Below, piece after piece: positions 9,466 through 30,335 of a stretch of DNA of 64,000 nucleotides. The stretch is from Spirochaetes bacterium GWB1_60_80 (GTDB lineage: Bacteria > Spirochaetota > Spirochaetia > Treponematales > UBA12059): assembly GCA_001829185.1 (NCBI GenBank), contig MIAR01000032.1, positions 80,133 to 144,132 on the forward strand, in the 5' to 3' direction. The notes beneath the pieces are model-generated. The model had not been told where the DNA came from and made no database searches. It was given only the letters and a program-made list of their open reading frames with translations. The position numbers were made by a program, and so were the translations under genes. Numbering within the stretch: the first letter of the stretch is position 1; every line of letters starts with the position of its first letter.

Positions 9466-9759
9466 TCAATGACCAGGCTTGCTGACCCGACCGGTCGGTG
9501 AGACGGTCCAGCCTTCCTGTTCCAACAGTCCGCGCTGGATTTCCAGGCCGCCTCCCGGTGGCAACGCGATGCACCCATCAGCCTTCACGACACGCCACCA
9601 GGGCAATCCTTGCTCTGTCGAACAGCTGTGAAGCAAGCGGGCGACTTGCCTGGCACCATTGGGCAACCCGATAGCGGCCGCGATGCGTCCGTAACTATTG
9701 ATTGACCCGGTGGCTATGGCTTTGATGGCTGCAATCAGACGCTGGCTGGTTTCTGTCAT
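9466..9759 (-). CDS. Alkyltransferase-like (ATL) protein, MGMT-family DNA-binding domain without the acceptor cysteine
   Basis: YGRIAAAIGLPNGARQVARLL...LPWWRVV. Trp occupies the position of the PCHR cysteine. Start moved to ATG 9759 (residue 20) because the upstream part of the track ORF is AT-rich promoter-like sequence. Confidence 0.65.
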   Translation of the reverse strand: MTETSQRLIAAIKAIATGSINSYGRIAAAIGLPNGARQVARLLHSCSTEQGLPWWRVVKADGCIALPPGGGLEIQRGLLEQEGWTVSPTGRVSKPGH

Positions 9760-9765
9760 AGCCTG

Positions 9766-9794
9766 ATTTTTACTCAAGGTTCTATTAATTGCAA
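9766..9794 (-). promoter_or_regulatory. Candidate promoter for the leaderless ATL gene
   Basis: Minus strand: TTGCAA (9794-9789), 17 nt, AAAAAT (9771-9766), 6 nt, ATG 9759. Confidence 0.35.
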
Positions 9795-9883
9795 GTCTTT
9801 TTATTGAGTTAGACAATTATTTGAGTTTTGTCATTTTTACTATTGAAACGATAAACTTTTCCTTGTACTATTAGGCAGTAACC

Positions 9884-9936
9884 TAACAGGCTGTTGAAAA
9901 AGCCGAGCGCGGCTCTTTCAACATAGCAGACCTGCT
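9884..9936. repeat. Solo hairpin copy related to the termini of the 28.3 kb MITE
   Basis: TA-ACAGGCTGTTGAAAAAGCCGAGCGCGGCTCTTTCAACA-TAGCAGACCTGCT. The first 20 nt match the MITE right end (ACAGGTTGTTGAAAAAGCCG) at 19/20. TGTTGAAA (9892-9899) pairs with TTTCAACA (9916-9923). Confidence 0.6.
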
Positions 9937-27790: not shown

Positions 27791-27800
27791 GGGGGGGGGG
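27791..27800. repeat. Homopolymeric G10 tract (C10 on the minus strand)
   Basis: Ten consecutive G directly adjacent to the hairpin AGCTGG-atagtg-CCAGCT (27801-27818). It lies 25 nt past the stop of the remnant gene and 170 nt upstream of uvrC. Confidence 0.9.
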
Positions 27801-27825: not shown

Positions 27826-29044
27826 TCAGGGCTGGCGGGTTAGAACGTAGGCTTCACTGCTAAATTCAGTTGGTCTGGCTTCACCAGGGGCAGCGAACTC
27901 GAAGCGGAATATGCTGCCTTCTAGACTATAGATTCCGTATACCAGACTGCCATCTTGGATAGTCAGGTCGATGCTGCCACTCGAAGCATTGTAGTTTTCC
28001 AGTTCGAAGGGGAAAATGGCGCCTTCGAAGATGCTATTACCTATGTCCGCACGCTTCAAAAACAGACAATTTCGTAAAACAACCAATTCTATATCGAATG
28101 TGCCTAGATTACCAGTGTAGGTTCCGTCGAGCAAAGCGGTTTGGGATAGCGGCTGGCTGTAGTTGCTAGGGGTATACAGTTCCCGTGTATAAACGTAGGT
28201 ATATGTAGACCTATCTGAAATCGATCCATCTGGATTATAAATGGATGATTGGAGAGTAAAATCATAACCATTTGGAGCATAAGTAAATATATCAGAATAA
28301 CTTAGCAGGGTGTTGAAAAACGCGAATGCGGCTTTTCAACACTTCAAAAGCCGGTACAATTACGCAGCATAGCGCAAGCTATGCGAGGAATTGTTAAGGT
28401 TGTTGAGAAAGCAACCGGCTTTTTCAACAACCTGTTAGTGACGTCCTGGCTTCATCGATGTACGTTTTATTCTCTATCAATTCCCCAGCACTGTTGAAAA
28501 CCTGAGATGAATAGGAAGTCGTCCCAGATAGTGATGTGGTCGTATAACTAGTTAGATTACCATCTGCATCATAAATTTCATCTGAGTAAGTAGATTGACC
28601 AAGATAGGCGAAATTACCGGTAGGGGATAAGCCTGAGGTATATGAAAAACTAATTTTTGTGCCTTGTTCATTATAGTGGTACCAATATGAAGTGTTGATA
28701 TTTGGTGGCACCGTACTTGTTACTCGGTTCAAGGTTATTTTCGTCGTACCCTCTGTATTGCTCAAAAAAGTAGTGACTCTGGTAATACCATTCTTAACAC
28801 GAGTGTAGCCTGATCTAATTCCTGTTCCAGTTGAAGGATAGGTATAGCTCATTGTGTATGTGATTGTGGGTTCTTCATTTCTTTGTTCAGTAACCGTACA
28901 GGCGGTGCTTCGGTAACGGGGGTTTGCTGTAAAACTGGCGCTGACGCTAAGATTCGCGGTTATAGTAATCGTCGTCGTTGCTTCTGTGGCGCTTATGCCA
29001 GTCCAGTTACCGAAGCTATAATCTGCGTCCGGGGTTGCTGCCGT
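27826..29044 (-). pseudogene. Remnant of a large surface protein gene (InlB B-repeat-like segment, YD-type repeats, TIGR03067-like C-terminal domain), 5-prime truncated and split by a MITE
   Basis: The minus frame is stop-free from 29044 and has no usable start before M at 28852. Motifs: DADYSFGNWTG...ITITANLSVSASF; IYDADGNLTSYT, VFNSAGELIENKTY, IYNPDGSISDRSTY; C-terminus IDLTIQDGSLVYGIYSLEGSIFRFEFAAPGEARPTEF. Interrupted at 28305-28435. Confidence 0.65.
28305..28435. mobile_element. 131-bp miniature inverted-repeat transposable element with a TA target duplication
   Basis: Ends GCAGGGTGTTGAAAAACGCG... and (reverse complement) ACAGGTTGTTGAAAAAGCCG... match 14/16 over the first 16 nt. Each end is itself a hairpin. 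Central GCATAGC-GCAA-GCTATGC stem-loop (28367-28384). TA at 28303-28304 and 28436-28437. Removal restores the host reading frame. Confidence 0.75.
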
Positions 29045-29090: not shown

Positions 29091-30096
29091 TCAGGGGAGT
29101 GTGAACAAGCGGTCGAGGTACTCAAGGAACTGCCTCCAGGGTAGCACTCGGGCAAAGTCCAGCGGGAAGGGTTCGGGGGCGGTGCACACCACCAGGCACG
29201 GCACGTCAGGATTATCTTCCCGGAAGGAGCGCAGGCCGGAGAGGTCAGCGCTGCTGACCTCTCCGGCTTTTGAACTCGATGGCCAGCGCCAAGAGACCGT
29301 TCAATTCCACTAACAGGTCAACCTCGGCGCCGTTGTTGGTACGCCAATAATAGAGGGCGGCGTCGGCCTGGGCGTAGTCGATGCGCCGTCTGGTTTCCTG
29401 CACGAAGAATTGCTCAAAGAGCCGTCCACGAAAGACCGGATCGAGCTGGCCGGCCAGATGATGGGTCAGACTACAGGTAACGCCGTTGTCGAAGAGGTAG
29501 AACTTGGGATGGCTGACCAGGCGTTTGAGCGGGCTTTTGGTCCAGGCCGGCAGACGTAAGGCGATGAGGGTGTCTTCCAGCACTTCGAAATAGGATTGTA
29601 CGGTGCGCGCCGGCAAGGCGGCTTCGCGCGATAAGGCGCTGGTATTGAGGATATCCCCACAGTAAGCACCTACCAAGTCCAGGAAACGGGTAAAGCCACC
29701 CAGGTTGCGCACCAAACCTTCGAGTTGGATTTCTTCGCGCAGGTAGATTTCCACGTAGCCTTTGAGCGTATCGCGGCGCTCGGCTGGCGCCAGGCCGAGC
29801 AGAGGTGGCAGGGTACCCCATTGCAAGGCGGTATCCAGGTCGAACACTGCGCCCAGTTCCCGAACCGTGAAGGGATGCAGGCGGCGTAGCAAGGCCCGAC
29901 CGCCCAGCAGGTTAGCGCCGCCCCGCTTCAGCTTGCGAGCGCTGGAGCCGGATAATATGAAACGGGCGGAGCTACTTTCCAACAAAGCATGAACCTCGTC
30001 GAGCAGGGCTGGTGCCGGGCGACGCGGTTCTGATAGCACAGCTCCTCTATCATTATTGAGCATCTCTTTGTCATTAGGTTGACTTAGCCATACCAT
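29091..30096 (-). pseudogene. DUF4143-type AAA ATPase, N-terminally truncated (no Walker A) and frameshifted near the C-terminus
   Basis: PALLDEVHALLESSSARFILSGSSARKLKRGGANLLGGRA...VSHPKFYLFDNGV...YYWRTNNGAEVDLL...AIEFKS, then a premature stop at 29245. The family-typical C-terminus (GEVSSADLSGLRSFREDNPDVPCLVVC...LPWRQFLEYL) continues in another frame to the stop at 29091. Confidence 0.7.
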
Positions 30097-30112
30097 GGAC
30101 TATTTTCATGGT

Positions 30113-30335
30113 ATGATAGTAGTCACTATACATGAAGCCAAAACCAATTTTTCAAAATTTGGTGATCGCGTTCATGGCGGTGAAGAGGTCCTGGTCGCTA
30201 AAGCAGGAAGCCCTGGGCCCGCTTGGTTCCGCTGGAAACTCAGCCAGAACGGGTTCCCGGTCGCTATCGAGACGGCCCTGGAAAGAGCTTTTATGACCCC
30301 TTCCCGACAATGAGTTAAAGGCTTGGGAGGCATGA
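30113..30335 (+). pseudogene. Phd/YefM-type antitoxin with two 1-nt deletions
   Basis: MIVVTIHEAKTNFSKFGDRVHGGEEVLVAKAGSP in frame A. ARLVPLETQPERVPG in frame B after a deletion near 30215. DPLPDNELKAWEA-stop in frame C after loss of one C in the run at 30297-30300. TGA 30333-30335 overlaps the toxin ATG. Confidence 0.65.

Follow-up and report, generated by a model that had tools for sequence, protein, structure and literature searches.

A 129-bp miniature inverted-repeat transposable element, probably derived from the IS5 family, in a lipoprotein pseudogene of Spirochaetes bacterium GWB1_60_80

The window analyzed here is the whole 64,000-nt stretch of contig MIAR01000032.1 (positions 80,133 to 144,132) of Spirochaetes bacterium GWB1_60_80. 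A segment without coding potential was identified between two of its minus-strand open reading frames (ORFs), one of 142 aa at 28424..28852 and one of 102 aa at 27826..28134, and it carries a transposable element of the miniature inverted-repeat type (MITE) which interrupts a gene. The element proper is non-coding and 129 bp long (28306-28434), and its CAGG...CCTG ends are directly flanked by a 4-bp direct repeat. These boundaries were set from 109 independent insertion sites of copies that are 99-100% identical. The plus orientation of the MITE is that of the strand on which the conserved core, GCAG-hairpin-CGAGGA, reads 5' to 3'. The features of the element and of the interrupted gene, including the terminal inverted repeats (TIRs) and the target-site duplication (TSD), are as follows.

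28302..28305, no strand: left copy of the TSD, TTAG (a YTAR site), from the sequence and the comparison of 109 sites
28306..28434, plus strand: MITE proper, running CAGGGTGTTGAAAAA...TTTTTCAACAACCTG
28306..28320, plus strand: left TIR, CAGGGTGTTGAAAAA, the same as the first 15 nt of an IS5-family insertion sequence (IS) of Sinorhizobium meliloti
28310..28342, plus strand: left terminal hairpin, formed by the TIR core GTGTTGAAAA and an inverted copy of it within the element, TTTTCAACAC
28356..28394, plus strand: central hairpin, closed by ACAATT/AATTGT pairing
28364-28389, plus strand: conserved core in the central hairpin, consisting of GCAG, stem CATAGC, loop GCAA, stem GCTATG, then CGAGGA
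28397..28433, plus strand: right terminal hairpin, formed by the right TIR and a copy of it inside the element, GGTTGTTGAGAAAGC
28420..28434, minus strand: right TIR, reverse complement CAGGTTGTTGAAAAA; on this side, the outermost 25 nt of the MITE match the end of the transposase-bearing element on metagenome contig L147 at 24 positions
28435..28438, no strand: right copy of the TSD, TTAG, from the sequence and the comparison of 109 sites
28435..29044, minus strand: upstream gene fragment, the frame of which opens after the TGA at 29047-29045
27826..28305, minus strand: downstream gene fragment, through the stop at 27826-27828

The initial annotation had described imperfect inverted-repeat ends, each of them a hairpin, and a central GCATAGC-GCAA-GCTATGC stem-loop further closed by ACAATT/AATTGT, and all these features were recovered. 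The two 15-nt TIRs, CAGGGTGTTGAAAAA and CAGGTTGTTGAAAAA, match at 14 positions, and a repeat finder showed terminal arms of 27 nt that are 78% complementary (28303-28329 and 28411-28437). The arms of the left hairpin (28310-28319 and 28333-28342) are complementary at 10 of 10 positions, and those of the right hairpin (28397-28412 and 28418-28433, 16 nt) at 94%. When 135 nt were folded as DNA, three hairpins were obtained with a minimum free energy of -39 kcal/mol, versus -16.5 +/- 2.6 for shuffled sequences (z = -8.7), and none of 200 shuffles folded as well as the element; the RNA of the minus strand gave z = -5.9. A scan for promoters and terminators in the element yielded nothing beyond what is expected from shuffles, apart from one weak terminator-like hairpin in the right arm. 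The general characteristics of MITEs are all present: the element is short (less than about 300 bp) and non-coding, it has TIRs, a TSD of constant length, and many dispersed copies, and it shares its termini with autonomous ISs. The REP/RAYT and IS200/IS605 palindromic elements, which carry subterminal hairpins without TIRs and do not duplicate their target, were ruled out by the clear TIRs and the 4-bp duplication.

The length of the duplication was tested after the base just outside CAGG and that just outside CCTG were seen to vary among otherwise identical copies. At 102 of the 109 metagenome sites the flanking 4-mers on the left and on the right are identical, and they are always YTAR (CTAG 47, CTAA 21, TTAG 21, and TTAA 19); a TA-only duplication with independent flanks would be expected to give about 30 matches in 109. 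This result indicates that the element is 129 bp long with a 4-bp TTAG duplication rather than a TA duplication. The TA noted on both sides in the initial annotation is indeed present, as the middle of the longer repeat, and the length of 131 bp given there has to be shortened by 2 bp. Older copies from the genome collection carry identical 4-mers at 64 of 108 sites, and at 59 of the 72 sites where both sides still read YTAR, versus about 25% expected. The IS5 element is known to duplicate a 4-bp YTAR target (Escherichia coli, PMC5009759).

Insertion sites were also compared with all the YTAR sites in the same DNA (loci L115-L228). Among the 94 sites that could be analyzed, 34 (36%) coincide exactly with the stop codon of an ORF that has 100 codons or more, versus 20% of all YTAR sites. 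On either strand, YTAR includes a TAA or TAG triplet, and the host gene therefore keeps its stop codon when the target is duplicated. Sites inside long open frames account for 38%, versus 60% for YTAR sites overall, a depletion which fits purifying selection.

Full-length elements with the same ends were identified in Proteobacteria. A BLAST search with the concatenated termini against annotated plasmids led to pSymA of S. meliloti strain ml21 (CP140936.1, 936203-937738), which carries a 1,536-bp IS reading CTAG|CAGGGTGTTGAAAAAGCC...CTTCTTCAACAGCCTG|CTAG and annotated as an "IS5 family transposase" plus a hypothetical protein. The 366-aa transposase scores 253.7 bits on the NCBIfam model NF033581 (cut-off 140) and contains the Pfam domains DUF772 (PF05598) and DDE_Tnp_1 (PF01609). 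An internally deleted copy of 901 bp, with identical ends and CTAG repeats, occurs in strain 1021. The second ORF of this IS (114 aa, 1780-2124 of locus L243), the start of which overlaps the stop of the transposase gene, matches no Pfam or NCBIfam family, and the deletion in strain 1021 removes most of the transposase gene and keeps this ORF. When the S. meliloti transposase was compared by tblastn with all the fetched loci, two further homologues were found. The megaplasmid of Ralstonia solanacearum PSI07 carries CTAG|CAGGCTGTTGAAAAAGC followed by the N-terminus of a homologous transposase (49% identity), and metagenome contig L147, the end of which matches the right end of the window MITE at 24 of 25 nt, carries CTAG|CAGGTTGTTGAAAAAGCCGGTGGCT followed by a frameshifted homologue (46-52% identity). 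Long pairs of termini in loci L010, L054, L059, and L076 were considered as autonomous elements and rejected, since they proved to be neighbouring MITEs or ordinary genes.

The YTAR duplication, together with ends that are common to IS5-type ISs, points to IS5 as the parent family. We therefore consider it very probable that this is an IS5-family-derived MITE which was inserted at TTAG (YTAR), with duplication of these 4 bp, in a low-GC lipoprotein gene that was already decaying. As regards the enzyme acting in the window's organism, we infer that it is of the IS5 type and supplied in trans. Such a transposase, of the NF033581 kind (DUF772 plus DDE_Tnp_1), would bind the 15-nt termini CAGGNTGTTGAAAAA, each of which, in the spirochaete-type subfamily, is also repeated internally in inverted orientation. 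It would then excise or copy the element and insert it at YTAR by means of a cut staggered by 4 nt, and gap repair at the insertion would generate the 4-bp duplication.

The window itself contains a single full copy and one solo end. In public metagenomes, by contrast to this single copy, a scan with the right end of the element (at least 114 loci, L115-L228) yielded at least 127 full copies at at least 109 distinct sites, 99-100% identical, so that the further copies with target duplications anticipated in the initial annotation do exist. At least 93 of them share one master sequence, which is 1 nt off the window copy, and at least 10 are identical to the window copy. In assembly Ga0154383, the match-bearing contigs, about 2.05 Mb in length, contain at least 77 copies, which corresponds to at least 38 copies per Mb in these contigs. 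Some copies come from samples that also contain the window's contig (Ga0209518 and Ga0208958), and the GC content of the copy-bearing contigs and that of the window are alike (59.5% and 58.7%). The element is a recently amplified MITE.

A second scan, performed on the genome collection with both termini (CAGGNTGTTGAAAAA, 85-115 nt, TTTTTCAACANCCTG), gave at least 108 loci. Among the matches listed, their titles span 11 groups: Thermodesulfobacteriota, Pseudomonadota (Alpha-, Beta-, and Gammaproteobacteria), Spirochaetota, Nitrospirota, Ignavibacteriota, Chloroflexota, Zixibacteria, Binatota, Bacteroidota, Verrucomicrobiota, and Planctomycetota; these labels are the titles of metagenome-assembled genome (MAG) records, some of which may be misbinned. 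The closest relatives of the window copy, among the matches listed, are in two Spirochaetota MAGs, where the element equals it in length and in the arrangement of three hairpins, each hairpin showing compensatory differences. No viral contig matched the two-termini pattern, and no plasmid matched the window element. The gammaproteobacterial-type element matches Pseudomonas plasmids, where no transposase was found nearby. A core-only remnant of this type, lacking the termini, occurs on a Pseudomonas syringae pv. avii plasmid (L229, 2501-2571) and on about 12 Pseudomonas plasmids, and in the P. syringae-group plasmids it lies just upstream of the MATE transporter and iaaL genes. The literature was searched with the terminal and core sequence strings, and only unrelated primers and no published description of the element were retrieved; a paper on Thiomargarita MITEs was set aside as not relevant.

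Partial copies were also observed. The solo end in the window (9886..9923, plus strand) reads CTAA|CAGGCTGTTGAAAAAGCCGAGCGCGGCTCTTTCAACA and represents a related copy of which only the left-hairpin module remains, preceded by a YTAR site. It lies at a sharp junction between AT-rich and GC-rich DNA, and the minus-strand gene at 9466-9816, which is methyltransferase-like, has its 3' end upstream of it. Four independent copies (L143, L155, L172, and L192) lack exactly the left-hairpin module: they start within 1 nt of TTCAAAAGCCGG and have no YTAR in their left flank. This pattern suggests that deletions recur at the inverted copy of the terminus inside the element, through either the hairpin or abortive cleavage at a pseudo-end. 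Several other loci keep only one terminal hairpin.

The initial annotation had proposed that the element splits a coding frame, and this was borne out when 28305-28437 (133 nt) was deleted in silico: a single minus-strand frame then stays open from 29044 until the stop codon at 27826 (361 aa and the stop, 362 codons), and the repaired junction reads ...IDEARTSL-SYSDIFTY.... The frame is restored by the 133-nt deletion in any of three equivalent registers and not by a 131-nt deletion, and the excision product is identical whether the element is read as 129 bp with TTAG or 131 bp with TA. A word-indexed protein search with the repaired frame gave no homologues. An exhaustive HMMER search of representative proteins was needed to find one colinear full-length relative, P0012 (438 aa; E 1.3e-11), which aligns at residues 67-433 with residues 2-359 of the query. 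The BLASTP alignment with this protein has no gap across the junction (...ENKTYIDEARTSLSYSDIFTYAPNG... and ...EEAGYSDTSKTTLVYKYINTYDTNN...), the homologue having no additional residues there, and the restoration of the frame therefore goes beyond a 1-in-3 coincidence. Since the insertion adds 129 + 4 = 133 nt, the gene is thrown out of frame and two ORF ends arise as artefacts: the C-terminal residues of one ORF (...TGC*) and the N-terminal residues of the other, with its out-of-frame start, are due to the MITE, in line with the initial annotation, which took both ends for translated element sequence. Public protein collections list the two ORFs, of 142 aa and 102 aa, as called genes.

The designation of this gene as a surface-protein gene holds only in part. 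P0012, which begins with a lipoprotein signal, MKRILKMTLALAVFIGLFSGC, belongs to the lipoproteins and has a domain resembling the InlB B-repeat. In the repaired frame, residues 3-41 match the PF18998 profile (divergent InlB B-repeat) at positions 29-72 of 73 only. The window gene has neither a start codon nor a signal peptide, and since about 66 N-terminal residues, including the lipobox, are absent, it is a 5'-truncated pseudogene of such a lipoprotein regardless of the MITE. Its GC content is about 40%, versus about 59% in the window.

The pseudogene belongs to a small island of degraded sequence, bordered by uvrC on one side and a ferredoxin gene on the other. A look-up of the UvrC product gave no exact match. 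It is adjoined by a DUF4143 ATPase gene (29245-30096), which is N-terminally truncated and retains only the last third of the AAA_14 domain, and beyond this gene come a Phd-type antitoxin gene (30095-30313) and, next to it, an ORF of 61 aa that matches a PIN domain weakly. In the 186-nt spacer between the start of uvrC and the stop of the interrupted gene there is a run of ten G (27791-27800) which could slip during replication.

Several results weigh against the IS5 explanation. The similarity between the MITE and the ISs is confined to the first 20 nt or so. Apart from L147 and the Ralstonia locus, no homologue of the IS5-type transposase was detected by tblastn in the 64-kb window or in the other loci (about 1.9 Mb), and the window and about 0.9 Mb of flanking DNA on the MITE-rich metagenome contigs showed no other repeat longer than 350 bp. 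Regular expressions for IS5-type catalytic motifs and a phmmer search with E. coli InsH were likewise negative in the metagenome loci. That Ga0154383 and the window represent the same organism is likely, given the similar GC content and the common sample series, and is not proven. An empty-site allele was sought in other assemblies of the locus, and all seven public copies spanning the site are occupied. Besides the window, nine public copies of the locus were compared, all of them with the element; no difference from the window was seen in L001-L006 and L237-L239, while L240 has 2 nt changed within the 1.7 kb compared, and two short contigs end inside the element, as expected of assemblies at repeats. 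Lastly, the length of the duplication does not discriminate by itself, since IS701-family duplications are also exactly 4 bp (PMC2266710).

Among the other explanations, the one that fares best is that the element acts mainly as a structured nucleic acid with a function of its own (an RNA or a hairpin module of single-stranded DNA), conserved through selection on the fold and not solely on the ends bound by the transposase, with mobility as the vehicle. The spirochaete subfamily retains the core hairpin with a different stem sequence. Most other family members fold into one long hairpin (99 of 109). The core occurs, in a constant position, in 49 of 109 elements sharing these termini, and it consists of GCGCAG, a stem of 5-6 bp, a loop, the complementary stem, and TGAGCATT. 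The stem occurs as CATAC/GTATG, CATAT/ATATG, CATAGC/GCTATG, CATTTG/CAAATG, TGTAC/GTACA, and TTTAC/GTAAA. RNAalifold predicted 40 pairs in 30 divergent members, 21 of them with compensatory double changes. Pairing was observed in 95.2% of the alignment cells, versus 35-43% when the partners were slid, and double changes in 202 cells, versus 15-53 in the slid controls, although all these counts are inflated by the relatedness of the sequences; the covariation score observed was not attained in any of 500 shuffles. In alignment A2 (members from L007-L110), the unpaired motifs CAAGGC, AAAGCGCAG, TGAGCATT, and AAC (columns 37-43, 57-64, 80-87, and 103-105) are invariant or nearly so, while the helices between them covary. 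One G-T/U pair is invariant across phyla, and G-U pairs exceed A-C mismatches by about 2:1 on one strand.

The central hairpin, which has invariant flanks (GCGCAG...TGAGCATT), conserved internal loops (CAAGGC and AAC), and stems that covary between lineages labelled as different phyla, might be a functional module of its own. If so, a single-stranded DNA or RNA structure would be needed for mobilisation by this IS5 subgroup, in a hairpin-dependent step that, to our knowledge, has not been described for IS5 elements; alternatively, the hairpin would be a portable regulatory RNA which the hosts tolerate or exploit. Either possibility would explain why the fold has been kept in unrelated bacteria while the sequence drifts. 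However, the core is present in fewer than half of the elements (49/109), Rfam returned no match for the window, for the element at a permissive E-value, or for the family members, and no convincing promoter or terminator was detected. Copies occur in both orientations and in pseudogenes, and the arms of a palindromic MITE could co-evolve without functional selection. We consider this explanation unlikely, both for the element and for its central hairpin.

Mobilisation by another transposase family that makes 4-bp duplications, such as IS701, appears much less probable still. Apart from the length of the duplication, it is favoured by the fact that the transposase of the window's own organism was not seen. 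However, the published IS701 end consensus, ---YACT-Y--YR (PMC2266710), does not fit CAGGNTGTTGAAAAA, and three independent transposase-bearing elements with these ends encode IS5-type DUF772/DDE_Tnp_1 proteins. It is thus the termini common to IS5-type elements, rather than the length of the duplication, that favour IS5 over IS701.

The origin put forward in the initial annotation, namely a 131-bp MITE of the Correia or Nezha type, derived from IS630/Tc1-mariner with a TA duplication, is no longer tenable except as a very remote alternative. TA does occur on both sides of the element here and of 80 of 109 family members, the size is typical of such MITEs, and the terminus loosely resembles the Tc1 end, CAGTGCTGGCCAAAAAG. 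But the bases beside TA match across the two sides far too often (the 102 sites counted above, versus about 30 expected), the bases that would be terminal in a 131-bp element vary between otherwise identical copies, and the elements with these ends encode IS5-family transposases, whereas a regular-expression search for the IS630-like catalytic motif gave no match in about 1.8 Mb of related loci. A chance palindromic spacer between two unrelated small ORFs, with no insertion at all, has a negligible likelihood: a word-index search gave neither flanking ORF a homologue, but a colinear homologue extends across the junction, more than 100 near-identical copies with duplications exist elsewhere, and the fold is far more stable than that of shuffled sequences.

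The derivation from IS5 has several implications. A YTAR duplication read as "TA" leads to IS5-derived MITEs being mis-assigned to IS630/mariner, and many independent copies are needed to avoid this. The identical copies, at least 93 in number, point to a very recent burst of the MITE in a groundwater bacterium or a set of close relatives, and a burst of this kind fragments assemblies and creates spurious small ORFs. The 15-nt termini are found across about 11 MAG-labelled phyla, with full IS5-type elements in rhizobial and Ralstonia replicons, and the S. meliloti transposase combined with the MITE would constitute a tractable system for studying IS5-type trans-mobilisation. The conserved covarying hairpin is also worth testing. 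We regard the recent burst in this lineage and the covarying hairpin shared across phyla as two points of moderate interest.

Among the known systems, the MITE was compared by description only with the Correia elements of Neisseria and the Nezha elements of cyanobacteria, which it resembles in size class, TIRs, hairpin potential, and intragenic or intergenic insertion. Correia and Nezha elements duplicate TA and are linked to IS630-type elements, whereas the window MITE has a YTAR duplication and IS5-type ends. The IS5 element of E. coli has in common with this family the 4-bp YTAR duplication and the DUF772 plus DDE_Tnp_1 architecture of the transposase, but its termini (GGAAGGTGCGAA...) are different, and InsH finds no relative in the loci searched. 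MITEPsy1 of P. syringae pv. phaseolicola is an IS5-derived (ISPsy2) MITE with a 4-nt CTAG/YTAA duplication, which frameshifts genes and was shown experimentally to transpose (PMC3189936). Like the window MITE, it is small, non-coding, and attributed to IS5, with a 4-nt duplication and a very similar terminus ending ...TGAAAAAGCC; it differs in its length (100 nt), its TIR (GGAAGGTCTGAAAAAGCC versus CAGGNTGTTGAAAAA), its unrelated interior, and its restricted distribution, and is therefore a separate family. Among the closest counterparts is the IS on pSymA of S. meliloti, which has inverted-repeat ends and a CTAG duplication and the first 15 nt of which are identical to those of the window MITE (CAGGGTGTTGAAAAA). 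It is a 1.5-kb element encoding a 366-aa transposase and a 114-aa ORF, versus a 129-bp non-coding MITE, and, like that of Ralstonia, it belongs to the Proteobacteria and not to the window's organism.

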